In this document: piece after piece, positions 4,183 to 44,707 of the stretch
Layout of the letters: every line of letters begins with the position of its first letter
How positions within the stretch are numbered: the stretch's first letter is position 1
Assembly: GCA_048887165.1 (NCBI GenBank)
Contig: JBHLJZ010000006.1
Location: 8,210 to 72,209, forward strand
DNA: 64,000 bases
Direction of reading: 5' to 3'
Source: Candidatus Hodarchaeota archaeon
Lineage (GTDB): Archaea; Asgardarchaeota; Lokiarchaeia; Sigyniarchaeales; SOKP01
Translations under genes and position numbers: made by a program
Notes under the pieces: model-generated
What the model was told of the DNA's origin: nothing
The model's input: only the letters and a program-made list of their open reading frames with translations
The model's database searches: none

Positions 4183-4320
4183 CTCCTATAGTAGTTTATT
4201 ATTTAATATTAATTAAAACGTAATTTTCTAATTAAATTTAATCTTGAACAAAAACGTTAAATTTATTATTTAATTATTTTTTTATACCAATTAATCGAAT
4301 AATTTTGAGGTGAAATCTAA

Positions 4321-4626
4321 ATGGGAAAATTTATGATTAGAGGATGGTATCCACCAAACAAATATAAGGAATTATTGAAAGTTTATATGTCTAAGGACAA
4401 ACCTCCGTACCCAGATTTTCTAAAAAAAACTTTAAATGTAACTACTGTAAATGCAGATGGAAATTGGCAAACTTATGCATTGTATGAATTTCCAGATGAT
4501 AAAACTAAAGAGGCGACAAATGCTCTCTTGAAAAGATACGCTCTTTATACCACTGTTGAGGGTTATAGATTTGTTGTAGAAAATGTTATGGATGCTGAGG
4601 AGGGAATAAAGCTCCTTATGGGTTAA
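4321..4626 (+). CDS. Hypothetical small protein (101 aa)
   Basis: Intact ORF with ATG start and non-repetitive composition, in its own intergenic slot. I recognised no motif. Confidence 0.4.
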   Translation: MGKFMIRGWYPPNKYKELLKVYMSKDKPPYPDFLKKTLNVTTVNADGNWQTYALYEFPDDKTKEATNALLKRYALYTTVEGYRFVVENVMDAEEGIKLLMG

Positions 4627-4814
4627 ATAAAGAATATAAATTTTCTCTTCTAAAATTAACTTTTCTTTATTTTTTAATTAACAACAATCTTACAAATTTA
4701 AAAATTCTATGTTTAATTAGAATTCTATTTTGAAATAGAAAATAAAATAGAAAAAAATATTTTGTAATGTTCTTTCTTTACAATAATTTAATAATTTTTC
4801 TATGGTGTAATTAG

Positions 4815-21255: not shown

Positions 21256-22635
21256 ATGGAATTAACACCTAAAAAAATTTACGAGGATTTCTTTAACAAA
21301 ATTATTGATAAAGTCTCAGCAATTGAACAATTATCAACTTTAATTGAAAACAGTAACAATATTAATATCCGAGTCAAAAGCATTGAGTATTTAGAAAAAA
21401 TTGGAAAAATTGGTGACAATTCAAATAATAAAGAAGAGAATTTATTTAACCTATTCGAAAACTTGTTGATTTCAGATTCAAGTGATAAAATACGAAATAT
21501 TGCTGCTACTTTTCTAAAAACTAACTTCCTTGAAAAATCATTTGAACCAATGATCTGGGCACTTCATCATGAATCATCACCCAATTGCTTAAAAGTTATT
21601 TTTGAATCACTTATTGGTATCATAAATCAATCAATAAAGAAAGAAGATGATATCTCAAAAGTAAATTTATTTAATAAAATAAAACAAATAAATGAAAAGG
21701 CTTTTAGAATAGATATTGAGTTATGGTGCGAAGGAAAACAAGAGGATGAGATTACAATCAAAGAAATAGCTGAAATTTTAATTAATTATTTCTGTTTAAT
21801 TTATTTACAGAAAACTGTATGGCGTTTAAAATTTTCAATTGAAAATTGCAGAATTGTCCAATTAGATTTTATTTTTAAGGGATTAACTAAATTGCCAGAA
21901 GCTATAAAGCACCTCAATTCTCTTAAAGTCTTAATATTGAGGTATAATCAACTTACTATCCTTCCAGATTGGATTGGTTCTTTAAATTCTCTAGAATCGT
22001 TAAATCTCAATGTAAATAACATAATAGAACTCCCAAAAACTATTGGTTCCCTAACTTCTCTCAAAGAGTTGCTCTTATGGAAGAATGAACTTAATTTTCT
22101 ACCAGACTCAATTGGATTAATGATTTCTTTAGAAAAACTGAATCTAAGATTAAATCAATTAATTGAATTACCCTCAAATTTTGGAAATCTATCATACCTT
22201 AAGGAATTAAATCTTCATGACAATAAGTTGGTCTCTATTCCAGAAACGATAGGTTTACTCTCCTCCTTAGAAATACTTAATCTAAGTTGGAATGAATTAA
22301 AAAAGATTCCAAATACTATAGGGGCACTATCTTCGTTGAAATCTCTAGATTTAGAAAGGAACGAATTATTATCCATCCCGTTATCAATTGGAAATTTAAG
22401 TTCATTAAAAGTGTTAAATCTTAGTGATAATAAGTTAAAAAAAATCCCAAAAACTCTTGGAAACCTGAAAAATTTGGAAATTTTAAACCTTTCCAGAAAT
22501 AATATTACTGAATTGCCTGAAACAATAAAGTTATTAACTTCACTAAAAGAAATTTATTTAGGAGAAAATAATTTTAAGAGTATTCCGAGAGATTTAAAAG
22601 AATTAGAAAGAAAAGGTTTAAAGATTTTTTATTGA
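21256..22635 (+). CDS. HEAT-like repeat + leucine-rich repeat protein (paralogue 3)
   Basis: 459 aa with the same architecture (ISDSSDKIRNIAATFLKTNF, AEILINYF linker motif, about 10 LRRs, C-terminal LKELERKGLKIFY). Confidence 0.85.
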   Translation: MELTPKKIYEDFFNKIIDKVSAIEQLSTLIENSNNINIRVKSIEYLEKIGKIGDNSNNKEENLFNLFENLLISDSSDKIRNIAATFLKTNFLEKSFEPMIWALHHESSPNCLKVIFESLIGIINQSIKKEDDISKVNLFNKIKQINEKAFRIDIELWCEGKQEDEITIKEIAEILINYFCLIYLQKTVWRLKFSIENCRIVQLDFIFKGLTKLPEAIKHLNSLKVLILRYNQLTILPDWIGSLNSLESLNLNVNNIIELPKTIGSLTSLKELLLWKNELNFLPDSIGLMISLEKLNLRLNQLIELPSNFGNLSYLKELNLHDNKLVSIPETIGLLSSLEILNLSWNELKKIPNTIGALSSLKSLDLERNELLSIPLSIGNLSSLKVLNLSDNKLKKIPKTLGNLKNLEILNLSRNNITELPETIKLLTSLKEIYLGENNFKSIPRDLKELERKGLKIFY

Positions 22636-29059: not shown

Positions 29060-30235
29060 TTGAATAATAATATGTTCCCTACAAATAAGGATAAGGTAAA
29101 ATGTGAGCATTGTGGATATACTATTGTAAAACCTTATCCAAAAAATCAACTTTGTCCAAAATGTAATAAATTTTTAGCTAACTTATTTGAATACAAGGAT
29201 GATAATATTAATTCTACTAAAATCAAACCAAAAAATTTTGAAACAAAAACTACTACAGTTTCATCAAGGTTAAAGGGAGTTAGTGTCAAGAGTAAACAAC
29301 CTCAGTTTTCATTAGAAGATGAAATCATTTTTTTAAAAGATGAGGAAGAATATGTCAAATTTTGTGGGGTTACCTCTGTTGATCGAAAACAACTATTTCA
29401 TAGTAATCAGAAATATAAATATTTATTAGAATTGACTAATAATTTGGACTTTATAGCGACGGGTATTCTTGGAGGAGAACTTGATAAGATGCTTCTCATT
29501 TCTAAAGATTATAAAGAAGAAAAAGGCCAATTTTACGTCAAAAATGGAATAATCTATATAGTATATGGTGTGTTTCCTGATAAAAAAGGAAAATGGATAC
29601 TTGAACAAATGGCAAAATTTTATTCTGATTTAGTAAAAGGAAAGGATGTAAATAATCTTAATAAACTTGAAGAAAGTGAGATTAAGAGAGATTATAGAGG
29701 GATTCTAAAATCTATTTTAAAAGAATATTTAGCTTTACAAGATGTCTTTACAGACCAGGATCTTCCCTATTTAGAAGATTGGATAAGAATTGATTATCTT
29801 GGTCTATCTTCAATGTCGATTGGAGTGATTTCTCTTCTTTTAGATCAAGGGGAATATTTGCAAATTGAAGCACCTGAAGAATATGATAATCCTGCTGAAG
29901 AAATTGAAATGAAAGAGTCATTATTAACCGCAAAAATCGAAGCAATTGCAGCAAATACTTTAGGTAATACTGGTGCCTATCCTCGATGGATAGCGGTTAA
30001 ATTAGGATTTCAAAATTATAGATTCCTAACTTTTAAGAAGTATCAAAATGATTATTTTCTTTCTTTTCTTTCTGAAGGAAATTTAAAAAAGATTGAAAAC
30101 GTTGAAAAAGAATTAGAACCTTTATTACATCATGGTATTGATTCACCCTTTTCAGGTAATTTAAAACCTTTCAATAGATTAAAAGCGACTCTAACGGAAA
30201 AATTCAAAAATGTACCAGAAAGGAAATTCTCATAA
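29060..30235 (+). CDS. Hypothetical zinc-ribbon protein with two putative roadblock/longin-like alpha/beta modules
   Basis: 391 aa, with ATG at 29072 the likelier start. It has an N-terminal CEHCG...CPKCN zinc ribbon. The later segments YIVYGVFPDKKGKWILEQMAKFY and YRFLTFKKYQNDYFLSFLSEGNLKKIENVEKEL have a roadblock/longin-like pattern. That pattern is an inference by eye. Confidence 0.35.
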   Translation: MNNNMFPTNKDKVKCEHCGYTIVKPYPKNQLCPKCNKFLANLFEYKDDNINSTKIKPKNFETKTTTVSSRLKGVSVKSKQPQFSLEDEIIFLKDEEEYVKFCGVTSVDRKQLFHSNQKYKYLLELTNNLDFIATGILGGELDKMLLISKDYKEEKGQFYVKNGIIYIVYGVFPDKKGKWILEQMAKFYSDLVKGKDVNNLNKLEESEIKRDYRGILKSILKEYLALQDVFTDQDLPYLEDWIRIDYLGLSSMSIGVISLLLDQGEYLQIEAPEEYDNPAEEIEMKESLLTAKIEAIAANTLGNTGAYPRWIAVKLGFQNYRFLTFKKYQNDYFLSFLSEGNLKKIENVEKELEPLLHHGIDSPFSGNLKPFNRLKATLTEKFKNVPERKFS

Positions 30236-30288: not shown

Positions 30289-31248
30289 ATGGCTTCATCT
30301 CCCAAGAAAATTTATGAAGATTATATTGAAAATTATGTAAATAGAACTATTGCTATAGAGTTATTGATTTCAATAATTGAAAATTCAGAGAATGAATCTA
30401 ATAGGTTTGAAGCTATTGAAATTTTAGATAAAATCAAGGCAAGTAGTCCGGAGATTTTTAAATTATATGAAAATTTGATGATTAGTGACTTAAATTCTAG
30501 AATCAGAGCACGTGCTATTTTATATCTTCCAAAATATTTCGTAGAAGAAGCTTTACTTCCATTAAAATGGGCAATTAGACACGAAGATTCATATGAATGT
30601 TTAATCAATATTATTAAAACTCTTGAAAACTACTATCCAAAGGAATCCCATTCAATCTTTTTAGAAGAAATAAAAAAAATCAGGAAGATTCGCTATTTAA
30701 ATTATGAAAAAAGGTATGAGAATAGAAAATTCAAAAAAGCATTAAAAAAGTTAATAAAATCGAGTCAAATTAAAAATTTTTCAAAAAACAAATTAGCTGA
30801 AATTTTAATCAATTATTTCACCATTCAAAATCTCTCTAGTAAATTCCCTAATATGTTTTTTGAGTTAGAATCGCAAAATGCTTTAGTAAGGGAATTAGAT
30901 TTATCTGATTACTTAGAGCATGAAGTTAAAGGAACTCCTTGGGGCTGGAAGAATAATATTCAATCAATTTCAGAAATAACTGGATTGGAAAATTTAAAAA
31001 ATCTAAAAAGTTTAGATTTATCTAATAATCTAATAAACGATATAAAAGATTTAATCGAATTAAAGAATTTAACTCATCTAATTTTGTCAAATAATAAGAT
31101 TAGTCATCTTGAAAATCTTGACTATATAAAAAAATTACCAAATCTTAAAGTTATAGATCTTAGTGGAAATGATATTGTTAATTTTTTTAATCCTGAAGAC
31201 TTTAAGACAAAAACTAGAATTCTCGTAAGAAGATCACTTATAGAATAG
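30289..31248 (+). CDS. HEAT-like repeat + short LRR protein (paralogue 4, SDS22-like 22-residue LRRs)
   Basis: 319 aa. The N-terminus is homologous to the other three (PKKIYEDY...AIELLISIIENSENESNRFEAIEILDKI, ISDLNSRIRARAILYL, AEILINYF). About 4-5 LRRs follow (LKSLDLSNNLINDIKDL...). Confidence 0.75.
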   Translation: MASSPKKIYEDYIENYVNRTIAIELLISIIENSENESNRFEAIEILDKIKASSPEIFKLYENLMISDLNSRIRARAILYLPKYFVEEALLPLKWAIRHEDSYECLINIIKTLENYYPKESHSIFLEEIKKIRKIRYLNYEKRYENRKFKKALKKLIKSSQIKNFSKNKLAEILINYFTIQNLSSKFPNMFFELESQNALVRELDLSDYLEHEVKGTPWGWKNNIQSISEITGLENLKNLKSLDLSNNLINDIKDLIELKNLTHLILSNNKISHLENLDYIKKLPNLKVIDLSGNDIVNFFNPEDFKTKTRILVRRSLIE

Positions 31249-31281: not shown

Positions 31282-32628
31282 TTATTCTATTAACTGTGTT
31301 TTCCCAGTACCCCATATTCCAAGAGCTTTACCTAATTCTTCATGATCCTTGGCATATTTACTAACCGAAATACCTTGCATAACCGCATCAATTGCTTGTC
31401 TAAACGCCTTTGCACCAGAAATGGGACCATCGGGATGACTATGAATACCTCCTCCACTTCCTATAAGTATGTCCAATCCAGCTTCTTTTATACATTTTTC
31501 TACCATACCTTGCGTTATTCCACCACTAGGCATTGGTAAGGTAGGTTTTATATGTTGGAATGGATACCTAAGAGCTTTTAAATTTTGTTCATATCTTTCT
31601 TCAAGAATTTCTGCCTTTCCATAAGGGGCGGGGATTACAACAGTATCTGCTCCACACATCCTAGGGAATTTTGCAAGTACTAACATCGAAGTCAGTCCAG
31701 TCCACTCACCTCCAATATATGCCCCACCAAAATCCATATGCCCTAAAATCGGTACTTTTATTGAAGGATCTTCGGCAATCGCTCTCAATGCTTCAAAACC
31801 TGAAGTTAGATAATTAAGCATTAATGCATTAGCTCCAAGTTCTATCATTTTATCAGCATATTCAAACATTTCGGGAAACTTTGTGGTAATATTAATAGTA
31901 TAAAGTGTTTTTTCTCCTTTTTCTGAATCTGCTCTGTCAACAGCTTCCATTACCTTCACAATTCTATCTTCTAACCTGTTAAAAGAAGGATCCGAAATCA
32001 ATTCGTCATCTTTCACAACATCACAGCCACCAACAGCTGCTTTATATACTAAATCAGCAGCAACTTCACAAGTGTGACCTGTACATGGTTTAACCATATT
32101 GTTTAATAAAGGGCGCTCTGGTATTTTCATAAGCTTTCTTATACCATCAATTCCAAATTTGGGTCCTTTAAATTCTTCAAGATATTCTTTTGGAAATGCT
32201 AAATCAACTAATTTTAAACCATGAGTTAAACTAATATTACCAATTACTGTAGTAAGAAGCATTGGGATTCCCATTCCTTTAATATTTACAATAGGGAAAC
32301 CAATCTGAGCGAAATAATATCGTTCTTTCACATCCTTTGGTATAACGTATTCATAATGAGGTAATTCATACACTCCAAGTACTCTTGCTACATGATATTT
32401 TCTAACTTCTTCGGTTTCTGCAGGAACTCTAACCCATGTTCCTGTTGATTGTTCTATTGCTGCAAATCTAGATAAGTAATTAACATTCATTCCTTTTGGT
32501 CTTTTAATAATGAAGCTTGCAATTATATATTTCTCCAAATCAATGCCGTCTAAGCCAATAGCTTCTGGGATATCAAAATATTTTTCTGTACTGTCCATAA
32601 TTATATCAAGAAAGTGTAATTTTTTCAA
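31282..32628 (-). CDS. RuBisCO large-subunit family protein, probably a RuBisCO-like protein (form IV-like) rather than a carboxylase
   Basis: 448 aa. EQSTGTWV, GNIS, VKDDE and the C-terminal GSGGGIHSHPDGPISGAKAFRQAIDAVMQG are very close to archaeal RbcL. However, VKPCTG replaces KPKxG, GHMDFGG replaces GHRAMH, and VVIPAPYG replaces LHVGT. The comparison is from my memory of form III sequences. Confidence 0.7.
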   Translation of the reverse strand: MKKLHFLDIIMDSTEKYFDIPEAIGLDGIDLEKYIIASFIIKRPKGMNVNYLSRFAAIEQSTGTWVRVPAETEEVRKYHVARVLGVYELPHYEYVIPKDVKERYYFAQIGFPIVNIKGMGIPMLLTTVIGNISLTHGLKLVDLAFPKEYLEEFKGPKFGIDGIRKLMKIPERPLLNNMVKPCTGHTCEVAADLVYKAAVGGCDVVKDDELISDPSFNRLEDRIVKVMEAVDRADSEKGEKTLYTINITTKFPEMFEYADKMIELGANALMLNYLTSGFEALRAIAEDPSIKVPILGHMDFGGAYIGGEWTGLTSMLVLAKFPRMCGADTVVIPAPYGKAEILEERYEQNLKALRYPFQHIKPTLPMPSGGITQGMVEKCIKEAGLDILIGSGGGIHSHPDGPISGAKAFRQAIDAVMQGISVSKYAKDHEELGKALGIWGTGKTQLIE

Positions 32629-32692: not shown

Positions 32693-33796
32693 TCAGTCTT
32701 TAGATTTAGTTCTGGATTTTAAATTCATATAAGTATTTTCGAGAACATTCAAATATTCAATTAGTACTTTATCTGCTTTAGATTTTTTCTCGTATTCTGC
32801 TTTAATGATATTCAATAGATATTTTGGAAAGATGAGATCTAAATAGAAATCCGTGAGTAAAGCATAATATTCATTACCTCTTTCATCTTGAAAAACTTGG
32901 ATCATTTGACTCTCCCAGAGCATTCTTAAAACTTCGTTTATATCTTCAACTCCTTTCTTTTTAAGCTTTTCAAGGTCATTCTTAGTAACTATCGCTGTTC
33001 TTAATAGCCTTAGAGTCTCATAAACTTGAGGATTAATGATAACATCGATAATTCTAAGATTATCTTGTTCTGAGGGTTTATATCCTTGGAAGAATTTCTT
33101 TGTTTCAGTTCTATAATCTTCAGCAAGTCGTATAGGCAAACCTCTATCAGCAGGATCTTTTAGAAGTTGTACAGGAGGAACTCTTAAGATTAAGATGTCA
33201 TTTGTCAAGAAAATTAATTCAGAAGGCATACCTTTTACTGATGTTTCCTTAATTATTTCTCGTTTAGTTAATTCAATTAGAACACTCTCTAAATTTAAGA
33301 ATCCTTGTTTATATTTATCTTTTAACCATAACATTAATTCTGATTTAGAAACTACACCCTCGTCTCTAAGCCGATTAATTATCATTCTCTTTATCTCATC
33401 TTGAAATATCATGGCCAATCTCTGTTCAGCATTAAGAGAAGGGTAAACTGATAGACTTCGGAATAATGAAGGAACCATCGTCAAATAATTATCATCTTCA
33501 AGATTCTGTAAAATAATCCTTGAAGTGTCAATTAAACCACCTTCATAAGCGTCGGGATCATCATCTAAGTTTAATAATAAAAGAATATAATAACCATTTT
33601 CTGGACCGGTATAATATGAAGCTATGTTCAATGAACCTACCATTAGACTTATCATTCCTGATTCTCCACTGTACTCATGAGTACTATATACCTGCATCAA
33701 AGTTTTTTCAGTTACAATAATTTCTTCAGGATATTTTGCCAGTATTTCAGTACCGATTCTTTCATTCCATTTCATTAAGACTAATCCTACAGGCAT
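32693..33796 (-). CDS. Cassette A, gene 2: cytoplasmic protein with an N-terminal longin/roadblock-like domain and two winged-helix-like domains (paralogue of 35734-36843)
   Basis: 367 aa, about 60% identical by eye to the 369-aa ORF at 35734-36843 (MPxGLxLMxW, MISLMVG.LNIAS.YTG, INRLRDEGVVSKSEL, SVKGMPSEL, KKGVEDI, EYYALL). Its ATG overlaps the stop of the upstream membrane-protein gene (TAATG). Domain assignment is by pattern only. Confidence 0.5.
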   Translation of the reverse strand: MPVGLVLMKWNERIGTEILAKYPEEIIVTEKTLMQVYSTHEYSGESGMISLMVGSLNIASYYTGPENGYYILLLLNLDDDPDAYEGGLIDTSRIILQNLEDDNYLTMVPSLFRSLSVYPSLNAEQRLAMIFQDEIKRMIINRLRDEGVVSKSELMLWLKDKYKQGFLNLESVLIELTKREIIKETSVKGMPSELIFLTNDILILRVPPVQLLKDPADRGLPIRLAEDYRTETKKFFQGYKPSEQDNLRIIDVIINPQVYETLRLLRTAIVTKNDLEKLKKKGVEDINEVLRMLWESQMIQVFQDERGNEYYALLTDFYLDLIFPKYLLNIIKAEYEKKSKADKVLIEYLNVLENTYMNLKSRTKSKD

Positions 33797-34227
33797 TATA
33801 TAACGCCTCCTCTTGATTCACCCATTTGAGGTAATTTCTTCTTTTTTTTTGATTCTAATCCTAATATAACTTCCAAAGATAAGCCTAGCATCGCCCATTT
33901 ATCTCCGAATTTCTTAACCATATGTTCTTGTTTTGAGGGATATAAAAGGGAATCTGATATTGACTTTCTACTCTTTATATTTTTACTTATTTCTCTTGCT
34001 CTTTTTACGAATATTGGAATTTTTGCTTTTTGAATTGCTATGTATATGACTAAACTCCCTACAACTGCAACTACTACAATTACTATCATTAGGAAGTAGA
34101 ATATTGGAAATCCAAACATTTCTACCATATCGACAATAACCGTCGAAAATAGTGCTAGCGTTGTAATTATTAATACTAAGAAAAGTAAGATTAAATATTT
34201 AGATTTTGAATTCGTTTTAAAACTCAT
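33796..34227 (-). CDS. Cassette A, gene 1: small two-TM membrane protein carrying the conserved TM + basic cytoplasmic tail module
   Basis: 143 aa with two hydrophobic helices. The tail, IQKAKIPIFVKRAREISKNIKSRKSISDSLLYPSKQEHMVKKFGDKWAMLGLSLEVILGL, is homologous to the C-terminus of the 1443-aa protein at 36843-41174. Confidence 0.6.
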   Translation of the reverse strand: MSFKTNSKSKYLILLFLVLIITTLALFSTVIVDMVEMFGFPIFYFLMIVIVVVAVVGSLVIYIAIQKAKIPIFVKRAREISKNIKSRKSISDSLLYPSKQEHMVKKFGDKWAMLGLSLEVILGLESKKKKKLPQMGESRGGVI

Positions 34228-34600
34228 ATATTCAGAACCATTTTTTATAAGTTAATATTACTTTATAAGTTATTCTTTCAAATAAGAATTTTTTATCACT
34301 ATTAATGAAAATTCAAATTTTAGGAATTTCTTAAATTTTTCAATTTCGTATAATTTATAAAAAAAATATTGAGGTTAATAAAATTTTATGATTTTTCATA
34401 ATCTTTTAATACTCATATTTTCTGAAATCTATAATTAAAATCTCCTAATCTTTTAGCATTCACACTTATAAGAGATATTTAGCTTTTATAAAAGTTTAAA
34501 TATTTTAATTTAGATTGAAATATCAAAGAAAAGGTTATCTATAATCTTACAAAAACTTTAATAATATAAGATTTTTAAATTGCAATTTAGGTACTGAAAA

Positions 34601-35644
34601 ATGCTAAGACAAATTTATATCTTAAAAGACGGTAATGTTTTATACGAAAAGAACTTTGGAAAAGCGTTAACCCATGAGTCATTTCAAAATATTTCTCAGG
34701 AGATTTTAAAAGAGGCATCTCGAGGTTTGGGAAAGGATTTCGGAAGCACTTATTTTTTTAAACACAAAATCGTATATTCTTACGAGAAAGAATGCGGTTT
34801 ATTATTTATATTAATAGTGGGTTTAAACGATGAGATGAATCAAGTAAAATCAGAGATAACAAAGTTAAAAAATGAGTTTATAAACATTTTTGGAGATAAT
34901 CTTGATAATCTTGATACTTCTCTCATTGAGTTATTAAATCCTTTAATCTTTTCAATATATAAAAATATTAAAACAAAAATCTCTTTAGTAGGTTTTTCTG
35001 GAGTTGGGAAAACAACCATCACAAAATTAATCAGATCAGAAGAAATACCTGATGTACATATCCCTACCATAACTGGAAAAGTGTCAGCAATAAAGATAGG
35101 AAAATTGTATTTTCATTTATGGGATTTTGCTGGACAGGAACAATTTAGTTATTTATGGAATGATTTTATATATGGAAGTGATGCTGTTCTCGTAATAACT
35201 GATTCTTCATTAGAAAACGTTGAAAAGAGTAAATTTTTCATTGAATTACTAAAAGAAAATGCGCCAGATGCTCATGCTGCAATTATTGGAAATAAACAAG
35301 ATTTACCGGACGCCTTAAGTGTTGAAAAAATAGAAGAAATTCTTAAATTAAAAACTTATTCAATGATTGCTATAGATCCGGATAATCGCAATAAAATGAT
35401 TCAAATTATAGCAGACATATTAGAAATTAATACAGAGATATCACCATTACTAAAACCCCTTTTTGAAAGAGATTCTTTAATTTCTCAAGCTGAAACTTAT
35501 TTGAAAGAAGGAAACATGGTAAAAATTCACGAATCTTTTGAGAAAATCTCTGAGTTATGCTATGAACTAGGAGATTTCATTCTCTATAAAGAATTTCGTG
35601 AAAAAGCTGATAAAATTAAAGGACATTTAGGATATATTTTATGA
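34601..35644 (+). CDS. Longin-like domain fused to a Ras-superfamily small GTPase, with a C-terminal helical extension
   Basis: 347 aa. G-domain motifs are G1 GFSGVGKTT, switch-I PTITGK, G3 WDFAGQEQF and G4 GNKQDL. The N-terminal ~115 aa (IYILKDGNVLYEKNF...YFFKHKIVYSYEKECGLLFILIVGLNDEMNQVKSEITKLKNEFINIF) follow the longin profile. An ~80-aa helical tail follows the G domain. Confidence 0.65.
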   Translation: MLRQIYILKDGNVLYEKNFGKALTHESFQNISQEILKEASRGLGKDFGSTYFFKHKIVYSYEKECGLLFILIVGLNDEMNQVKSEITKLKNEFINIFGDNLDNLDTSLIELLNPLIFSIYKNIKTKISLVGFSGVGKTTITKLIRSEEIPDVHIPTITGKVSAIKIGKLYFHLWDFAGQEQFSYLWNDFIYGSDAVLVITDSSLENVEKSKFFIELLKENAPDAHAAIIGNKQDLPDALSVEKIEEILKLKTYSMIAIDPDNRNKMIQIIADILEINTEISPLLKPLFERDSLISQAETYLKEGNMVKIHESFEKISELCYELGDFILYKEFREKADKIKGHLGYIL

Positions 35645-35733
35645 GAGATTATATACTCATTAATTCTCTAATTGCAAAGGGAAATTCCTAAATTTAATAA
35701 AAATTTTTAACAATTAAAAAAAATAAGAAAAAA

Positions 35734-36843
35734 TTATTTTTCTGATTCTGATTCTATTGGTAATTTAGTATGTCGGTAAGTATCTTCAAGTACTTTTAAA
35801 TATTCCAATAGAACGTTTTCAGATTTAGATTTTACCTCATATTGGTGCATTACCGTATTTAAGACATACTTAGGATATATTAAAGACATATGAAAGTCAG
35901 AAAGTAAAGCATAGTACTCAATACCGCGATTGTCTTGAAAAACATGAGCAAATTTATTTTCCCATAGTTTTCTTATTCCTTCATCGATATCTTCAACGCC
36001 CTTCTTTCTAAGTTTTGCTAAAGCGTTTTTAGTTACAACAGCAATTCTTAATAGTTTTAAAATTTCATAGATTTGTGGATCTGTAATTAAATCAATAATT
36101 TTTAAACTATCCTCTTCAGATGGGCGGTATGTCTGGAAAAAGCTCCGAACTTTTGACTTGTATTCACTTATAAGGCTTTCAGGAAGGCCTCTCTCTTCTG
36201 GCTTTTTTAACAACTTTATTGGAGGTCTCCTAATTATTAATGGATCATTAATAAGAAATAATAATTCTGAAGGCATCCCTTTTACTGAGGCTTCTTTTAT
36301 TATTTCTTTTTTAATTAATTCCATTAAAGTTGCATCTATATCAAAAAATCCTTTTCGATATTTATCCTTAAGCCATACTTTTAGCTCTGATTTCGAAACT
36401 ACACCTTCATCTCTTAATCTGTTGATTATCAATCGATTTACATCATCTTGGTAAGTTAAAGCTAAATTCTGCTCATCAGTTAAATAAGGATATGCGGAAA
36501 GTCTTTGAAATAGAAATGGTAGCATCTCCATATATGCATTATCTTCAATGTTTTGCATAATAATCCGAGAGATATCTGTCAGCCCTCCTTCATAAAGATC
36601 CGGATCATCTTCCAAACTTAAGAGAACAATTATGTATAATGATCTTTCTTTTCCTGTATAAAATGATGCTATATTCAAATGACCAACCATCAGACTAATC
36701 ATTCCTGGCTCTCCTGTATATTCATGAGCAGCATATATTTGCATTAAGGTTTCATCAGAGACTATTAATTCTTCAGGATATTTAGTAACAATTTCCGTTC
36801 CTACTTTAGGATCCCATCTCATCAATATTAATCCTAATGGCAT
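35734..36843 (-). CDS. Cassette B, gene 2: longin/roadblock-like + double winged-helix-like protein (paralogue of 32693-33796)
   Basis: 369 aa, full-length paralogue of 32693-33796, with the same TAATG stop/start overlap with the upstream gene. Confidence 0.5.
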   Translation of the reverse strand: MPLGLILMRWDPKVGTEIVTKYPEELIVSDETLMQIYAAHEYTGEPGMISLMVGHLNIASFYTGKERSLYIIVLLSLEDDPDLYEGGLTDISRIIMQNIEDNAYMEMLPFLFQRLSAYPYLTDEQNLALTYQDDVNRLIINRLRDEGVVSKSELKVWLKDKYRKGFFDIDATLMELIKKEIIKEASVKGMPSELLFLINDPLIIRRPPIKLLKKPEERGLPESLISEYKSKVRSFFQTYRPSEEDSLKIIDLITDPQIYEILKLLRIAVVTKNALAKLRKKGVEDIDEGIRKLWENKFAHVFQDNRGIEYYALLSDFHMSLIYPKYVLNTVMHQYEVKSKSENVLLEYLKVLEDTYRHTKLPIESESEK

Positions 36844-39800
36844 TATTCAGTATCTCCTCCATTTTTAATTAATTTATCCTTCCTTTTTGACATTTTAATC
36901 CTCATATCCTTTACTCCATAAACATCATCTAAAGAAAGACCTAACTCTTTCCATTCCTCTCCGAATAATTTTATCAAAGTCTCATCTTTCGAAGGAATAG
37001 AAATAGTTTCAGTTATAGGCTTTTTAGATTTTATATAGCCTTTCACTTTCCTGATCTTCTTAATATGTTTTGGAATTCGAGCTTGTTGAATTACTCTGTA
37101 TCCTACAAGACTACCAACAATACCTAAGGATCCAGCAACTATCAAAATGAAATAAAATGTAGGCATTCCAGGAAATACTTCTTTCATCTTTATTGTTATG
37201 GTGATATCGATTTCCTGAGTAGTAAAATTCGCTTTTTGAGCAAAGATTGTTCCTGGAAAAGTTTGTGAAATGAAGAAAGCTTGAATTTCATCAGTCTCAA
37301 AATTTAGTGTATAAGTACCAGGTGATTGTTCCTCGAAATAATAATCAATTTCTTGAGCGCGTAAAAAGACTGTAGCGTTTTCAAGAGGTATATATCCTCT
37401 AGATTCATCCATTAAATTGATTGTAATTTCGATATCATTTCCCTGAACGGCGCTAACTTGCTTTCCTTTAATATTAGTGGCATCAAGAGTATAATCAATC
37501 TCTCGATACCTAATTTCTAAATTAATAAGAGCAAATCTAGATTCGTAATTATTCTTTTGGAGATTGATATACAGAAAATAGAATCCAACACTCCTTATTT
37601 CAGTATTGAAATCCAATGAATAAGTTTTGTCTGCTTTTTGACTTAATATTCCAGAGCCATCAATTCCGGGGATAATTGATCCATTCGAATATAATTTTTG
37701 CCATGTATAAGAAGCAATATCTAAATCTCCAAGTATTTGACCACCTAATAACGTATCAGCATAGGAATAAGTAAAGTTTATTTCATCCTCAACCCATATC
37801 CAAGGGTTAGAATATGCGATAAATGAACTTCCATTTATAGTTGTTGGTCTCTCTAGAACTTCAAGAAATGTGTTAATTGTCTTTGATGTATAATTTTCTT
37901 TCAAGGCTGTTATTGTGATTGGATACTTACCAACATTTATCGCTAAACTTGTATTAATAGTACAGTAATAATAGTTATCATCAATAGGATCTTCAATAAA
38001 ATAAATGAGTGGTTGAGTAAGCCAATCAAATGTAATTGTTGCTCCATCTAATTTACTATCTGGAGGTACATAATATCTAACTGTAATATTAATGATTTCA
38101 CTAAACTCTTTTTCTAGTTCTGATATTTGTAGATGTGTAGCATAATCGTATAAATCTAGACTTGTTGCTGTAGCATTCACTCTTACCTGGTGATAATAAG
38201 GTTCTGGAGATTCATATCCTGGTACTAAGCCATCAATTATAAACCAGTAGTTTTTATAATTATTTCCAGCAGATAATTTACTTGAATTAATAGTAAGAGA
38301 ATAATTCATTAAAGTAAGGCCTTCATAATTTGCTGTTAAATCTACTATTAATACTGTTTGACCAGTATCCCAATCTTCTATATAACATGTAAAGAATCCT
38401 TCATCAGGCACTAAGTACCAATTAGTTCCATCGTCAGAATATGATATATTAATAGTTATATGTAAATCTCCAATACCCCATATTGCTTGCGAAATTTCAG
38501 CAATTATATCTATCTGAGTTTCTAATGTAGGTGGTGGGGGAGTTGCTTCATAATCAAGTATAATAGATGAATTTTGGTTCAATGTGTAATTATATTCAGA
38601 AACTTCTCCAAGAGGTTCCCATTGTTTTGGAGATGTGTTATTTACTGTAAAGTTAGCTGCAACTCCAATTCTCCTAAGTGTTATATTATAACTAAATCCA
38701 ATTCGAAATATAAAAGGTTCATATTCAGTATCGCTATGAGACGCCCAGCCATCGTTGTTTGTAGTTAAAGTTGTGATAATTGTTGTACCATTCCAGATTC
38801 TTACACTAACAAAAGGAACGGGATTATATGAATCATCATCATCAATAACCCTTACATTCATTTTAGATAAAGCTGTTTTGTTATAGATGTTAGTTAATTC
38901 TGTAGTATTGATCTTTATTATACCTGTATGAGCTCCAGCATTATAACCTTGAACATCAACTAATATACCATAAACTTCGTAATTCTCTCCCTTTAATTTA
39001 TCATTATCAACTGTTCCAATATCGATAGATTTAAAATATGATGTGCCTGACATAGATAGATTTTGATAAATTATATTCCCTGATGTTTGATTATATTTGT
39101 CAATATAGTAAATTGTCATATTATCAATCTGTTGATCCATCGATTCCAACGTTATATTAAAATTAATCAGCTTCTTATTGCTAAAATCACTCATCGATCC
39201 TCCGGTGTAAATACGTTCATTAACTTTATAATAATCTCCAGGATCTTGGTCGTAAATATTTAGGGATAATGAATGGTCAAAATACTTATCATATTGGGTG
39301 TAGTCAGATCGGTAAATGTAGCTTGAATTCAAAAGAAAATCATTAACATTATATCTTGTGTTATAGAAGAAAACCTCATAATAGTAAAATGATGCATTAT
39401 TCCATCGAAATCTTGCTGTACCATTAACTAGTGATATCTGCTTTAATAGAGTACCTCCACTATCATTGTAGACCTTCACGTATCCATCATCAAAAAGATC
39501 ATCATCCCAATCTACTATTTCAAAATCAATTGTCCAAATGTCCAGATATAAATCATATATATGGGATAATTCAGATACATTGTATAAATTCCAACTAGAT
39601 GTTCCAAAATTATCTCTTGTACTATTGAATACTTCATCTTCATAACTAGGGATAAAAGTATAATTCACAGAGAAGTTATATATGCCAAAATTTAAACCAG
39701 TAAAGATTGTTTGACCTGTTTGATCAGTAGTTTGCTTTTTTATTAATGTTGTATCCTGCATTAATGAAACTTCGGCATTTGGAACAATCATACCATCAAT

Positions 39801-41174
39801 ATCCCGAGCTATAACAGTAATATCGGATTTTTGTGTCTGTATCTCATTTAATTCAACTGTTATATCATCACTATAAGTGAATTCAACATCATCAACTTGG
39901 ACAAAAGCAGTATCATAATTACCCACAGTATTTTCATCACCATACATTCCAAATTCTAATGAAATGTTTTGACCCATATAATTACTTAGATCAAATGTTA
40001 CTAAACCTGTTAAATCACCTTGGGATGTATCAAAAGTTCCTGTTATTATACCAGTAGTGTAATTTTGTAATGAATAATAACCTTTATTATTATGAGTAAT
40101 TCCCTTAAAATATTCTAAATACTCACCAATTTGTTGATGTTGATCTGGATCGACGAATAGATTGGAAGCATTAATTACTCGAACAAAATATCCATCATTC
40201 CAAGCCTTAGATGAACTCCCATCAAATCCCCAAGTTTTAACGTTCTGCCAGAATCTTATATAAATACTCCCACTACCATCATTAACAATTGGAACGGTAA
40301 ACGGGTTGGTATAAAAAACTCCAGCATATTGATCGTCGTTACCCACACTTTCAGTTATTGAAGTTTGATTCGAACCCCATTTATAAGTATATGTTCCTCT
40401 TACTTGTTCTACGCCTCCAGGTACGTCAATTAAACAATTTTGCCACCATTCAGTTGCTTGATCTTCAGTTTGTGAATCTTCTCCCACATCTGGAGGTCTG
40501 GGTGCAATATCATCAGGTACATCATCAGACCAATTCCATCCTACTGGATTATAATAGTGAGGTGTTATTGACGGATCACCAGTTGGATCGTCCCCACTCG
40601 GCACATATTCGAAGTCCCCATTTTTTACTAATCCAATACCATACTCAACTGCAGTAGTCTCAACATCCATATTTCCATAGTATAAATATACATCAGTTTC
40701 GGTATTACTAGAGGCAGAAAGATTTGTATTGAAATATATTGCTGCGTCGCCTATTGAATAATCTTCACCATTGAAATCTTGAAAAATGTAAAACTCTCTT
40801 TCAATCGGTTCATTATTGATATATTCTATGACTCTTATATCTTTTAAAGTATCATTTACTTTACCTTGATATTCAGGATCTCCATAAGGAAGATTTACAA
40901 CAACTCCATAATTTTTTAGGTCTACACCAGCTAGATTTGTTATATTTACTAGTGACCTATAAGGCCAATCAGAATCCCACCATGGATGATCACCAGCAAT
41001 ACTTGATCTAGGATTTAATATTGTATCATCAAACTCATTCTCACCTATAGGATTCAACTCAAAGAGAAATGGAGCTAAACTATAGTAAATGCTCCCAGAA
41101 GTTATCGCTATTAATATAACCGACAGTGAAAGTAGTTTTGTAATCTTTTTTTTTCTATTCATAGTTTCTATCAC
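36843..41174 (-). CDS. Cassette B, gene 1: giant type-I surface glycoprotein (DUF2341-like, carboxypeptidase-regulatory-like and Ig-like beta domains) with the conserved TM + cytoplasmic tail module
   Basis: 1443 aa from the GTG at 41174; ATG at 41162 is more likely (MNRKKKITKLLSLSVILIAITSG, a signal/anchor). WWDSDWPYRSLVNITN...DIRVIEY...VYLYYGN resembles DUF2341. DITVIARDIDGMIVPNAEVSL...TDQTGQTIFTGLNFGIYNF resembles a CarboxypepD_reg fold. There are dozens of NxS/T sequons. The C-terminal TM is FYFILIVAGSLGIVGSLVGY, followed by the basic tail. Confidence 0.6.
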   Translation of the reverse strand: MIETMNRKKKITKLLSLSVILIAITSGSIYYSLAPFLFELNPIGENEFDDTILNPRSSIAGDHPWWDSDWPYRSLVNITNLAGVDLKNYGVVVNLPYGDPEYQGKVNDTLKDIRVIEYINNEPIEREFYIFQDFNGEDYSIGDAAIYFNTNLSASSNTETDVYLYYGNMDVETTAVEYGIGLVKNGDFEYVPSGDDPTGDPSITPHYYNPVGWNWSDDVPDDIAPRPPDVGEDSQTEDQATEWWQNCLIDVPGGVEQVRGTYTYKWGSNQTSITESVGNDDQYAGVFYTNPFTVPIVNDGSGSIYIRFWQNVKTWGFDGSSSKAWNDGYFVRVINASNLFVDPDQHQQIGEYLEYFKGITHNNKGYYSLQNYTTGIITGTFDTSQGDLTGLVTFDLSNYMGQNISLEFGMYGDENTVGNYDTAFVQVDDVEFTYSDDITVELNEIQTQKSDITVIARDIDGMIVPNAEVSLMQDTTLIKKQTTDQTGQTIFTGLNFGIYNFSVNYTFIPSYEDEVFNSTRDNFGTSSWNLYNVSELSHIYDLYLDIWTIDFEIVDWDDDLFDDGYVKVYNDSGGTLLKQISLVNGTARFRWNNASFYYYEVFFYNTRYNVNDFLLNSSYIYRSDYTQYDKYFDHSLSLNIYDQDPGDYYKVNERIYTGGSMSDFSNKKLINFNITLESMDQQIDNMTIYYIDKYNQTSGNIIYQNLSMSGTSYFKSIDIGTVDNDKLKGENYEVYGILVDVQGYNAGAHTGIIKINTTELTNIYNKTALSKMNVRVIDDDDSYNPVPFVSVRIWNGTTIITTLTTNNDGWASHSDTEYEPFIFRIGFSYNITLRRIGVAANFTVNNTSPKQWEPLGEVSEYNYTLNQNSSIILDYEATPPPPTLETQIDIIAEISQAIWGIGDLHITINISYSDDGTNWYLVPDEGFFTCYIEDWDTGQTVLIVDLTANYEGLTLMNYSLTINSSKLSAGNNYKNYWFIIDGLVPGYESPEPYYHQVRVNATATSLDLYDYATHLQISELEKEFSEIINITVRYYVPPDSKLDGATITFDWLTQPLIYFIEDPIDDNYYYCTINTSLAINVGKYPITITALKENYTSKTINTFLEVLERPTTINGSSFIAYSNPWIWVEDEINFTYSYADTLLGGQILGDLDIASYTWQKLYSNGSIIPGIDGSGILSQKADKTYSLDFNTEIRSVGFYFLYINLQKNNYESRFALINLEIRYREIDYTLDATNIKGKQVSAVQGNDIEITINLMDESRGYIPLENATVFLRAQEIDYYFEEQSPGTYTLNFETDEIQAFFISQTFPGTIFAQKANFTTQEIDITITIKMKEVFPGMPTFYFILIVAGSLGIVGSLVGYRVIQQARIPKHIKKIRKVKGYIKSKKPITETISIPSKDETLIKLFGEEWKELGLSLDDVYGVKDMRIKMSKRKDKLIKNGGDTE

Positions 41175-42699: not shown

Positions 42700-43785
42700 A
42701 TGGCACAAAATTTAATTGTTTTAGGAGAACTCCATCAAGATTTATATTATGAAACTGATTTTTATGAGGATCTAGTAGAAAAAATTGTTTCTAATATTAC
42801 AAACTTTGTAAGATACAATCCTGATGATATAAGTAAAAAAATTCTTGAAAAATTGGTGCAAAGAGGATTCTCAGATACTCCAAAAAAAATTGAAGGCCGC
42901 TGTTTTTTCAAAAGAGGAGGTAATGGAAATAACTCTTCTGAATATTTTGCAAGTTTGGGAGTTCCAACTAAACTTATATCTGTGATTGGAAGGGGAAGTG
43001 AATGGATGATTGATGAACTGAAGGAACTAGGGATAAATACTGACTCAATATTTCAGATAGATGAAATAACACCTGTAAGTACCATTATTAAATCAAAATT
43101 TACTACAAAAATACATTTAGCTCCAAACCTAAAAGAAAAGATGAATTTTGATGGATTGAATATATCTAATGGATTATTGGATAATGCAAAGTTAATATTT
43201 TCAACTCCTATAGCACAAAAATTTATAAATTTATTTAATAGAGGTGCAAATTCTGGATTAATTACCGCCTTTAATATTGAAAGACAAAAAATTCATACTT
43301 TAGAAGAACTCTCAGAATTAATTAAGGAGAAAAAACATTTATCTTTTCTTAATGTAAAAGATGCCTATCGAATTTTAGATAAAAAACTTTCAATAGATGA
43401 AGTAGATGAAATCTTTAAACAATTTGCACAAATCCGAATTTATACTGCAGGGAAAGATGGCTCCTATGTGTTTACAGACTATCTGAAGATTTTTTATCCC
43501 GGGATAGAAGTAGAAGCAATAATTGATAGAACGGGTGCAGGCGATTGCTATGCTGCGGGTTTTTTAACTAAATTATATGAACTTGTCGAAGATAAAAATC
43601 ATTTAGAACAATTACTTAAAAAGGAAAAATTAGAAATAACTAAGAAAATTCTAACTTCATGTATTGAATACAGTACTCATGCAGCAATATATAAAATAAC
43701 TAAACAAACTACTCCAACCAAAATTGAAATGGATAATTTTATTAAAACTTTTAAAATTAAGAATAAATTAAATGTTATTGAATAA
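42700..43785 (+). CDS. PfkB-family carbohydrate/nucleoside kinase
   Basis: 361 aa with GGNGNNSS (GG motif region) and the C-terminal IDRTGAGDCYAAGF (DxxGAGD motif). Confidence 0.75.
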   Translation: MAQNLIVLGELHQDLYYETDFYEDLVEKIVSNITNFVRYNPDDISKKILEKLVQRGFSDTPKKIEGRCFFKRGGNGNNSSEYFASLGVPTKLISVIGRGSEWMIDELKELGINTDSIFQIDEITPVSTIIKSKFTTKIHLAPNLKEKMNFDGLNISNGLLDNAKLIFSTPIAQKFINLFNRGANSGLITAFNIERQKIHTLEELSELIKEKKHLSFLNVKDAYRILDKKLSIDEVDEIFKQFAQIRIYTAGKDGSYVFTDYLKIFYPGIEVEAIIDRTGAGDCYAAGFLTKLYELVEDKNHLEQLLKKEKLEITKKILTSCIEYSTHAAIYKITKQTTPTKIEMDNFIKTFKIKNKLNVIE

Positions 43786-44707
43786 TCTGTAAGATAAGAT
43801 TCTCCATTTGGGGTTTTGCAGCTTCAATCTTATCTAATACTTCAACAGTCTGTCCTAAATCTTCTTCATTTTCTTCAATTATGAATAATAAGTAGAAATC
43901 TAAATTTCCAAACTTTAGAACCTCAACTACACCAGAATATCTGTCTCCATTTTCAAACTTATCAGAAAATTCAAATAATGTCCTATTTTCATCAATTATT
44001 TTCTTTTGAGCTTCCAAATATTTATCATAAATTCTCATTTTTTCGGTAAGATGCAGATGAGGGCGGTAAAATTCTCCAATTGTTATTCCTTTTACATCAA
44101 ACAATGAAATCATAATAGCATTGTAATTTTTACTTATTTCAGCAAATAATTGTGATACCATCTCTATTTTGTCAAACAGTAAAGAAAGCCCACTTGAAAA
44201 TGCATCCATTACAGATTTAATGTCATATATAGTTGTTTCAAAGAAAAAAATATCAAAATCATGACTATATCGTGTTAAAGCTTGCTTAATTGTCAAAATT
44301 CTCTGATTTATAACTCTATCTTTAACAAGTTGGGGATCAAATTTGTGGAACAATATACAAATCGGAGGATATTCTTGCTCTTCTTTAAAGTAAAGTAATA
44401 ATCGATCAATATAATCTATAGATTCAACATATCGATCGAAATCTTGTGCATCAATGACATAAAAAACTAAATCTGTTCCTGCAATATACTTATTAGGCTT
44501 TTTTAAGTATTCTTCTCTATATTGCGATTGACCTCCAAAATCCATCCTTACAAACTCAACACCTAAAAATTTAAAGGCGTCTCGAGCAACTTTTCTTGTT
44601 GGCATTAATTTCGAGACTTCCTCTTCAAATCCAAATCTTTTTGTGATAACAGTAATTATACTAGTTTTACCTGCATTATCTAATCCTAAGAAAGCAATTT
44701 TTTGCAA
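43775..44707 (-). CDS. Rag/Gtr1-family GTPase (G domain + C-terminal roadblock domain)
   Basis: 310 aa. G-domain motifs are G1 GLDNAGKTS, G3 DFGGQSQY and a Rag-type G4 HKFD (ICILFHKFDP, compared with RagA CLVHKMDL). TTIYDIKSVMDAFSSGLSLL is collinear with RagA [19 protein letters not shown]. The C-terminal ~130 aa alpha/beta domain has the size of the Rag roadblock dimerisation domain. Confidence 0.8.
   Translation of the reverse strand: MQKIAFLGLDNAGKTSIITVITKRFGFEEEVSKLMPTRKVARDAFKFLGVEFVRMDFGGQSQYREEYLKKPNKYIAGTDLVFYVIDAQDFDRYVESIDYIDRLLLYFKEEQEYPPICILFHKFDPQLVKDRVINQRILTIKQALTRYSHDFDIFFFETTIYDIKSVMDAFSSGLSLLFDKIEMVSQLFAEISKNYNAIMISLFDVKGITIGEFYRPHLHLTEKMRIYDKYLEAQKKIIDENRTLFEFSDKFENGDRYSGVVEVLKFGNLDFYLLFIIEENEEDLGQTVEVLDKIEAAKPQMENLILQIIQ

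Follow-up and report, generated by a model that had tools for sequence, protein, structure and literature searches.

How might a surface protein of an Asgard archaeon be connected to a small GTPase inside the cell? This question is raised by a duplicated gene pair in a 64,000-nucleotide stretch (hereafter the window) of a Candidatus Hodarchaeota genome assembly (contig JBHLJZ010000006.1). Two cassettes, each consisting of a membrane-protein gene and a gene for a putative cytoplasmic adaptor, bracket here the gene of a longin-Arf-like GTPase, which we named LonG. Judging from sequence comparison and structure models, we see a slightly better than even chance that these genes constitute an Asgard-specific, membrane-coupled longin/small-GTPase module, comprising the tail of a surface protein, an adaptor with one longin and two winged-helix (WH) domains, and LonG. 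The genes concerned are the following (aa, amino acids; nt, nucleotides; TM, transmembrane):

adA, 32693..33796, minus strand: 367-aa cytoplasmic adaptor of cassette A; longin aa 1-118 (nt 33443-33796), winged helix 1 (WH1) aa 119-212, winged helix 2 (WH2) aa 213-324, then C-terminal helices
memS, 33796..34227, minus strand: 143-aa remnant of the cassette-A surface protein; retains a 27-aa N-terminal signal/anchor, the C-terminal TM helix and a 78-aa basic cytoplasmic tail (nt 33799-34032)
LonG, 34601..35644, plus strand: 347-aa GTPase; longin aa 1-122, Arf-like G domain aa 123-278, C-terminal three-helix extension
adB, 35734..36843, minus strand: 369-aa paralogous adaptor (longin, WH, WH) of cassette B
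memL, 36843..41174, minus strand: predicted 1443-aa type-I surface glycoprotein of cassette B; N-terminal signal/anchor, acidic ectodomain, C-terminal TM helix (about nt 37092-37163) and 82-aa basic tail (nt 36846-37091)

Probable coupling of the surface-protein tail to the adaptor

At both cassettes the junction reads ...TAATGCC, with the stop codon (TAA) of the membrane-protein gene overlapping the adaptor ATG by one base. A first-pass annotation of the window had pointed out these identical TAATG junctions, which turned out to be general in relatives. In about 100 cassettes from 76 other genomes, the adaptor starts -1 to +3 nt from the stop of a long open reading frame (ORF). Apart from four orphan adaptor copies, a partner of 638 aa and the 143-aa gene of the window, this rule has few exceptions, and the other complete membrane partners measure 1,220-2,289 aa. 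The recurrence of this spacing in so many cassettes marks it as a conserved feature and not a chance arrangement. The genomic contexts compared here and below are metagenome-assembled genomes (MAGs) and metagenome contigs, the taxon labels of which are unreliable.

In at least nine of the 411 representative clusters obtained by an exhaustive search for the adaptor family, ectodomain, TM helix, tail and adaptor form one single polypeptide. Since the initiator methionine of the adaptor is gone in eight of nine fused clusters (e.g., ...RREIK followed directly by PNGLVFMKWDER), these represent evolved fusions and not frameshift artefacts. The tail itself is a conserved unit of about 85 aa (97 cassettes: YR.IQ.ARIP.FVKK.R...IKGKK.IS.SLLYPSK....GDKW..LGLSL.DILG), a homologue of which is recognisable in a distant lineage (locus L091), and tail type tracks adaptor type in 92 of 93 cassettes. 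The charges are complementary, with a net charge of -11 for the adaptor longin and +9 to +12 for the tails. Median orthologue identity at 19 two-cassette loci amounts to 37% for the ectodomain, 64% for the tail, 72% for adB and 66% for LonG. Stop/start coupling, natural fusions and the co-segregation of tail and adaptor types strongly back the earlier proposal that the conserved tail recruits the longin-WH protein, and on this comparative evidence we regard tail-adaptor binding as very likely.

Two variations of the arrangement were observed. At L042 (10001) and L055 (425) the junction reads TAATT and the adaptor lacks a canonical start codon (ATT), which may reflect reinitiation at a non-canonical start or a decaying gene. 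Loci L009, L014, L026 and L031 contain an extra adaptor paralogue (copy at ~3550-5474), 69-79% identical to adA, which directly follows the methyltransferase gene and is not preceded by a membrane-protein gene.

Surface proteins and the loss of an ectodomain

The 1443-aa ORF of memL begins with GTG; the true start is probably the ATG at 41162, four codons further in, giving 1439 aa. Its acidic ectodomain contains Ig/CarboxypepD_reg-like repeats (weak Pfam matches to CarboxypepD_reg and Big_1) and 41 N-x-S/T sequons, i.e., 3.2 per 100 aa compared to 0-0.6 in cytosolic neighbours, and the tail is strongly basic. An acidic, sequon-rich ectodomain together with a basic tail would fit a type-I topology, with an N-glycosylated part outside and the tail inside the cell. 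Intact partners in related loci carry Laminin_G_3 and CarboxypepD_reg-like domains; Pfam and NCBIfam searches revealed no kinase or HATPase domain in memL or memS.

With memL, memS has the last TM helix and the tail (net charge +12) in common (42% over 122 aa, E 5e-28). Furthermore, it corresponds to the 27 N-terminal plus the 121 C-terminal residues of a ~1,460-aa orthologue in the closest relative, L010, with 79% identity in each segment. The match of both ends to this orthologue indicates that this lineage has lost about 1,300 ectodomain residues in frame. The same short gene is present in an independent Logan assembly of a sequencing run; assembly collapse was consequently rejected as main cause of the 143-aa gene, as the second assembler gives the same junction, with the limit that both may share reads. 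The first-pass annotation had described two membrane proteins tenfold apart in size that share TM helix and tail. The shared part holds, whereas the size gap goes back to this deletion and is no designed feature, and the 143-aa protein, a deletion derivative, should not be viewed as a "receptor". As read from the sequence, the ectodomain of cassette A is lost in the window, while anchor, tail and adaptor remain. An independent ectodomain-less form of 217 aa, again with signal/anchor, TM helix and tail, is encoded in a distant lineage (L094 10430-11083). Together, memS and L094 suggest that the exposed part is shed recurrently while the cytoplasmic module stays.

Such variable surface proteins could also belong to a conflict or recognition system, in which hypervariable receptors sense viruses or partner cells and the adaptor relays the response. 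The ectodomain evolves far faster than tail or adaptor, its deletions are recurrent, and Helarchaeial relatives fuse the adaptor to SIR2_2 and TPR domains with weak PADLOC SIR2 matches. However, PADLOC gave no convincing match for adA, adB, LonG or memL, a scan of viral contigs yielded no relatives, and the locus is chromosomal, stable and highly conserved amid housekeeping genes, unlike a defence island. This role consequently appears very improbable.

Predicted fold of the adaptors

The two adaptors are full-length paralogues, as had been estimated by eye (about 60% identity): they share 62% identity over 360 aa without gaps (E 3e-177). Searches retrieved 783 homologues of adA and 648 of adB, and family members in MAGs bear Loki-, Jord-, Baldr-, Odin- and Helarchaeial labels. 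No Pfam or NCBIfam family matched adA, and neither PADLOC nor NCBIfam had an entry for the adaptors or the membrane proteins. In the AlphaFold2 (AF2) model of adA, computed from a 50-sequence alignment (mean predicted local distance difference test score, pLDDT, 81.4), aa 4-116 adopt the beta-beta-alpha-beta-beta-beta-alpha-alpha order of a longin (strands 4-11, 15-22, 47-53, 56-62 and 69-76; helices 30-43, 81-97 and 100-116). Two canonical winged helices (aa ~123-206 and ~222-322) and C-terminal helices of low confidence follow.

A Foldseek search of the PDB with full-length adA returned NPRL2/NPRL3 of GATOR1/SEAC at the top (9o5d_D with E 9e-4, 7t3a_C, 8fw5_C and 9h4q_T; E 9e-4 to 2.5e-3, probability 0.77-0.96, template-modelling score 0.19-0.25, root-mean-square deviation 18-24 Å), then BLOC-3 and Fuzzy-Inturned. 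Isolated longins, namely those of Sec22b, VAMP7, Ykt6, zeta-COP, sigma-adaptins (sigma-AP2) and TRAPP, were matched with a probability of ~1.0 at modest E-values (5e-3 to 5e-2). On the profile level, the family-wide profile A5 identified WH2 as ArsR/SmtB-like (PH1932, E 2.5e-4; HlyU, E 0.008; profile positions 242-317) and gave a match of WH1 to Mnd1 (E 0.023). PDB sequence searches with adA alone or with profile A1 returned nothing useful, and an hhalign comparison of WH1 with WH2 was not significant, the alignments being shallow. The longin-like N-terminus and the two winged helices anticipated from the sequence are thus borne out by AF2 topology and Foldseek matches in agreement: structure search recovers both folds and profile search adds WH2, but no longin was found by profile.

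In some distant members, the adaptor or its WD..G longin alone (the motif is described below) is fused to other modules: P0280 and P0281 (Helarchaeial MAG), L106 8001-9410 and L098 6822-8615. The modules comprise SIR2_2 with TPR, TackOD1 with zinc ribbons, and a long coiled-coil/low-complexity extension. From these varied fusions the longin module appears to be a reusable signalling part.

The WH domains bring up the option of a membrane-tethered transcription factor, which would be sequestered by the tail and released to DNA upon a signal. This would agree with the profile match of WH2 to ArsR/SmtB regulators, with one Joint Genome Institute (JGI) record labelling a family member as ArsR-family regulator, and with the fusion of the longin to TackOD1, a signalling output domain, in distant members. 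On the other side, the adaptors are acidic (isoelectric point 5.1-5.35) with WH domains near neutral, the putative recognition helix of WH2, as read from the sequence, is hydrophobic and acidic, and an adaptor that is permanently and covalently joined to the membrane protein, as in several lineages, would not easily be set free to reach the chromosome. Moreover, the tandem WH domains of NPRL2/3 are protein-binding modules, as are those of ESCRT-II. We therefore give a DNA-binding role only a very small chance.

LonG and its linkage to the adaptors

Between the two cassettes, LonG (34601-35644, plus strand) is the only ORF of at least 80 aa. Its description as a Ras-superfamily G domain with an N-terminal longin-like domain, given in the first-pass annotation, agrees with Pfam, where residues 122-256 match Arf with 77.5 bits (gathering cut-off 22.3), and with the AF2 topology. 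The motifs GFSGVGKT, PTITG, WDFAGQ(E) and NKQD are invariant in 40 orthologues; with intact G1-G4 motifs and the catalytic Gln, LonG is predicted to be switch-competent. The AF2 model (pLDDT 77.5) consists of a longin-topology domain (aa 4-122; beta-beta-alpha-beta-beta-beta-alpha-alpha), the G domain and a three-helix C-terminal extension. An N-terminal amphipathic helix for membrane binding is absent from LonG, the model having the longin-topology domain at this place. All Foldseek matches fell on the G domain, the best being Arf/Arl proteins including the Asgard GerdArfR1 (8oum), and PADLOC returned one marginal P-loop match only. Arg3 at the extreme N-terminus is conserved across the LonG family.

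In 21 of 21 Lokiarchaeial loci, LonG lies convergent with adB and within 400 nt of it, and the same layout was seen on other contigs. Conversely, 17 single-cassette loci spanning the whole interval contain neither adB nor LonG. The cassette-B membrane-protein gene (memB), adB and LonG hence come and go together in Lokiarchaeial loci.

A metagenome scan with alignment A4 extended the comparison to distant adaptors, i.e., homologues 27-35% identical to adA/adB, of which 17 full-length loci were available. Jord-, Baldr-, Odin- and Helarchaeial labels occur among representative clusters of similar divergence; that the distant loci are taxonomically independent was judged from sequence divergence and cluster names, not from a phylogeny. 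In 14 of the 17, a LonG homologue is the next gene downstream on the same strand, starting between 4 nt before and ~36 nt after the adaptor stop. These homologues (275-284 aa) align to LonG from residue 1 to ~274 with 32-38% identity, while at two loci only the G-domain half aligns (40-45%). An alignment from residue 1 onwards places the distant proteins in the same longin plus Arf-like family, without the C-terminal helices. At four of the 14 loci, a membrane protein of 950-1,205 aa with N- and C-terminal TM helices and a homologous tail is encoded two genes further on, and a fifth holds the tail-bearing protein in truncated form. Distant lineages thus bring the three components together in an order of their own, which is the strongest evidence for a functional "receptor-adaptor-GTPase" grouping. 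Thus, the linkage of the cassette to a longin-GTPase, initially read from a single locus, is retained across Asgard archaea in two gene orders: as adB-LonG adjacency with joint absence in Lokiarchaeial loci, and as adaptor-LonG operons in distant ones.

At two of the distant loci (L091 14099-14938, L099 4065-4976), a giant membrane protein is stop/start-overlapped with a different protein of 279-303 aa, the N-terminus of which looks roadblock/longin-like by eye and which contains a winged helix scoring above the Pfam threshold for HTH_47; this 279-aa neighbour shows a weak DUF742 trace (E 0.007). The adaptor hidden Markov models do not detect the HTH_47 protein, and the window holds no homologue of it. 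It may be a second, analogous tail partner.

Conserved motifs and possible action on the GTPase

In 58 sequences sampling the family down to 24% identity, conservation reaches at least 90% for W10, G15 and P23, and D11 comes close to this within the Lokiarchaeial and the distant subsets. The resulting W-D-x3-G motif occupies the strand 1-2 loop of the longin. Its spacing equals that of W33-D34...G38-P39 in C9orf72, which are reported to be required for the Arf-directed activity of C9orf72-SMCR8 as GTPase-activating protein (GAP) (PMC12290439). The GP motif is reported to be typical of GAP-type longins, where it precedes strand 2 and faces the GTPase pocket (PMC12290439). In the adaptors, the residue after G15 is mostly Thr, Ser or Ala, and Pro in some distant members only. 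We take NPRL2 R78 and FLCN R164 (human positions) to lie in the longin strand 4-5 loop. The corresponding position 67 of the adaptors is mostly Lys or else Arg in Lokiarchaeial A and B types, Asn in adA of the window and Arg in its adB. Without a conserved finger, the adaptor is not filed here as NPRL2- or FLCN-type GAP; from its motifs, it may instead be the non-catalytic, GTPase-docking half of a GAP-type platform, a longin of the guanine nucleotide exchange factor (GEF) type, or an effector.

Compared to 21 other A-type sequences, adA of the window carries 13 substitutions at positions at least 95% conserved, including D11N and K67N, which fall in the WD..G and the strand 4-5 loop, respectively. 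On thin evidence, these may reflect an altered constraint following the loss of the cassette-A ectodomain.

Position 67 also bears on the earlier idea that the two adaptors form an A/B heterodimer regulating LonG, similar to NPRL2/NPRL3 or FLCN/FNIP. The paralogues bracket LonG in the window and in at least 21 other loci, eukaryotic GAP longins act as heterodimers (PMC12290439), and within the window the residue differs between adA (Asn) and adB (Arg). However, Lys or Arg occurs in A and B types alike, which argues against a split into catalytic and non-catalytic halves, and each adaptor type has its cognate tail type. Single cassettes at the locus in 17 genomes (some others have three), together with distant lineages in which one adaptor goes with one GTPase, make an obligatory heterodimer unlikely, and overall we rate this arrangement as improbable.

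A candidate membrane-coupled GTPase module

How these parts could work together may be pictured as follows. Each cassette would provide a giant, N-glycosylated and fast-evolving type-I surface protein with a basic cytoplasmic tail of about 80 aa. This tail would be occupied 1:1, via translational coupling or outright fusion, by an acidic NPRL2/C9orf72-like longin protein with two WH domains, which would put a longin platform with its WD..G loop at the inner membrane face beneath a given surface protein. The platform would then engage the dedicated LonG, probably by longin-longin pairing with the WD..G loop toward the nucleotide pocket. In this way, presence or state of the surface protein could be coupled to location and nucleotide state of LonG, or the reverse. 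What the data show directly are the predicted folds, the coupling and fusion of tail and adaptor, and the conserved neighbourhoods of adaptor, GTPase and membrane protein in two gene orders. Physical binding, the adaptor face used, any action as GAP, GEF or effector and the direction in which information would flow are inferred.

Several observations weigh against this module. The structure predictions are AF2 monomers of adA and LonG computed from shallow alignments. The full-length Foldseek matches are likewise weak (E ~1e-3, template-modelling score 0.19-0.26); at such low scores, domain order and folds agree, whereas rigid superposition does not. Profile A5 searched against the PDB hit only winged helix-turn-helix (wHTH) proteins and no solved longin, and hhalign of the adaptor longin with the LonG longin was not significant with the shallow alignments at hand. 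A conserved basic residue or arginine finger in the strand 4-5 loop was found neither family-wide nor in the distant subfamily. With regard to gene order, the whole 20-kb block including housekeeping genes is syntenic in Lokiarchaeia, which renders local linkage alone weak evidence; at 17 Lokiarchaeial loci a cassette is present and LonG is absent, so the adaptor can evidently work without LonG next to it; and the distant loci of group 1 contain adaptor and GTPase with no large membrane protein nearby.

Some of these points are shared by an alternative in which the adaptor is a tail-binding scaffold, or a sorting or biogenesis factor for giant surface proteins, and does not regulate a GTPase. 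It would anchor these proteins to cytoplasmic structures, position them on protrusions or help their insertion, with LonG as upstream recruiter or mere neighbour. Tail-adaptor coupling and fusions are the strongest data of our analysis and fit such a factor, as do the 17 cassettes lacking LonG nearby. In addition, longins also serve as non-GTPase adaptors in SNAREs and in the sigma/mu-adaptins, which read cargo tails, and Lokiarchaeial cells possess many complex surface proteins and no S-layer (PMC9834061). Several findings speak against a scaffold, however: the operons of adaptor and LonG homologue in distant lineages, with no large membrane protein nearby in group 1, the joint gain and loss of adB, memB and LonG, and the placement of the invariant WD..G loop where GAP-type longins touch the GTPase (PMC12290439). 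We consider a pure scaffold rather unlikely.

Neighbouring genes of the locus

The window has a GC content of about 30%. Identical copies of its proteins are present in an Asgard MAG, and close relatives of its proteins (76-89% identity) bear varying submitter labels, mostly Promethearchaeota/Lokiarchaeia. A comparison of 76 GTDB species loci placed the cassette region in a conserved block, the first half of which runs ThiI-ThiS-RagL-(PfkB)-S25e-methyltransferase, followed by one to three units of membrane protein and adaptor; after the cassettes, RuBisCO-like protein-HEAT/LRR protein-Zn-ribbon protein-HisC complete the order. Two further features are relevant here:

Intergenic region, 34228..34600: AT-rich, between the divergently transcribed memS-adA operon and LonG (from orientation and sequence)
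RagL, 43775..44707, minus strand: 310-aa Gtr1/RagA-like GTPase (Pfam Gtr1_RagA, 81 bits) with a C-terminal extension

The former is presumed, from its sequence setting, to be a bidirectional promoter region. The latter lies four genes from cassette B, and its relative position is constant in all Lokiarchaeial loci reaching it. RagL is a possible module member of uncertain standing, and could be the alternative client of an NPRL2/3-like adaptor. Taken further, the adaptors might regulate RagL and not LonG, as a proto-GATOR1/Rag system tethered to a surface protein. NPRL2/NPRL3 are indeed the best structural matches, and RagL lies near the cassette even in single-cassette genomes without LonG. 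Nevertheless, genes for ribosomal protein S25e, a methyltransferase and PfkB intervene, the arginine finger of NPRL2 is not conserved, and distant adaptors pair with LonG homologues, no RagL-type gene having been found beside them. RagL in place of LonG is accordingly quite improbable as the regulated GTPase.

Other neighbours were noted in passing. The RuBisCO large-subunit-like gene (31282-32628, minus strand) lies directly downstream of adA in most related genomes; its identity is either 83-96% or just 53-55% in different relatives, which suggests that two types of RuBisCO-like protein alternate at this position. Four paralogous HEAT plus leucine-rich-repeat (LRR) proteins, all on the plus strand (15911-17413, 19723-21222, 21256-22635 and 30289-31248), are 30-42% identical and have N-terminal HEAT-like repeats in common ("IY.D...DK.SAIE.L..LIENS"); the gene at 30289-31248 accompanies the cassette locus in almost every related genome. 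Synteny is also kept in nearly all related loci for a 391-aa protein with an N-terminal CxxC...CxxC zinc ribbon (29060-30235, plus strand), which matched no family in Pfam or NCBIfam.

Relation to known systems

In domain organisation, the adaptors resemble NPRL2/NPRL3 of GATOR1 (Npr2/Npr3 of SEACIT; GAP for RagA) in having an N-terminal longin followed by winged-helix-like domains within about 370 aa, in a putative small-GTPase partner with its own longin/roadblock-type domain, and in the membrane as presumed place of action. Unlike these, they show no sequence similarity and no Pfam NPR2/NPR3 match, do not conserve an Arg78-type finger, and appear to be attached to a giant surface protein by its tail or form one chain with it; a DEPDC5 partner did not come up, and no search aimed at it was made. 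Furthermore, the neighbouring GTPase is Arf-like with an N-terminal longin, as opposed to a Rag with a C-terminal roadblock. C9orf72-SMCR8 (CSW) and FLCN-FNIP are comparable in the loop spacing of C9orf72 and in a putative Arf-like client, but the adaptors have two winged helices in place of the C-terminal DENN module, mostly Thr, Ser or Ala after the loop glycine, and no arginine-finger partner was identified.

Among prokaryotic systems, the actinobacterial conservon/AGPS (CvnA-D; Mfp) combines, in one operon, a membrane protein, a roadblock/longin-superfamily protein, a wHTH-type protein and a small Ras-superfamily GTPase, and has been interpreted as a G-protein-coupled sensory system (PMC13343842, PMC13621833, PMC4316618). 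In place of the histidine-kinase-like sensor CvnA, the cassettes encode a giant, short-tailed surface glycoprotein; longin and WH occur in one chain, the GTPase is Arf-like with a longin and not MglA-like, and adA and adB match neither Robl_LC7 nor DUF742 in Pfam. We regard the conservon as the closest functional analogue, with homology hinted at by superfamily-level folds alone.

A third comparison concerns the triad of Arf1, AP/COPI adaptor and cargo tail as well as SR-alpha (SRX longin)/SR-beta, which likewise bring together an Arf-family GTPase, a longin-fold adaptor and a type-I tail at a membrane; sigma-adaptins and zeta-COP are among the structural matches of adA. However, coat, appendage and mu-homology domains are missing from our system, LonG has no amphipathic helix, and no vesicle machinery is encoded in the locus, i.e., the resemblance is one of logic only.

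The individual parts have been described before. Longin-Arf/Rag-like GTPase fusions, the architecture of LonG, are known in Lokiarchaeia (PMC10933270, PMC11914678, bioRxiv 10.1101/2020.10.19.343400), and Asgard archaea have NPRL2-like longin families, in part with fusions to two-component-type domains (bioRxiv 10.1101/2020.10.19.343400) that are comparable to the TackOD1 fusions above; the adaptor probably belongs to these families. According to published structural surveys, Asgard GTPase genes generally lie outside operons with longin/roadblock genes, which left their partners unmatched (PMC10933270). Different from these surveys, the present analysis reveals a specific linkage of adaptor, GTPase and membrane protein that is conserved. 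The view that no such system had been described needs qualification, as parts are published and the conservon is a close analogue; it holds insofar as no description of the cassette was found in the open-access full-text literature. What appears new is the conserved cassette as such, joining a giant surface protein and its dedicated tail with a longin-WH-WH protein and a specific longin-Arf-like GTPase.

Implications for Asgard archaea

It is tempting to view the module as a prokaryotic forerunner of the eukaryotic logic of membrane-protein tail, longin adaptor and Arf-family GTPase, a proposal that we hold with considerable doubt. If true, a tail nucleating a longin platform that switches an Arf-like GTPase at a defined membrane patch would be older than endomembranes, and coat-adaptor or GATOR/Ragulator-type platforms could descend from such an arrangement. 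This raises the question of whether the closest prokaryotic relatives of eukaryotes already used longin platforms as GAPs or GEFs tethered to a membrane. Asgard genomes encode dozens of small GTPases and dozens of longin/roadblock proteins, hitherto without matched partners. In this context, the locus offers a matched set, in which a single Arf-like GTPase goes with a single NPRL2/C9orf72-like longin protein and a single membrane anchor. This set recurs in several Asgard classes and makes the role of "trafficking" GTPases in cells without endomembranes experimentally approachable.

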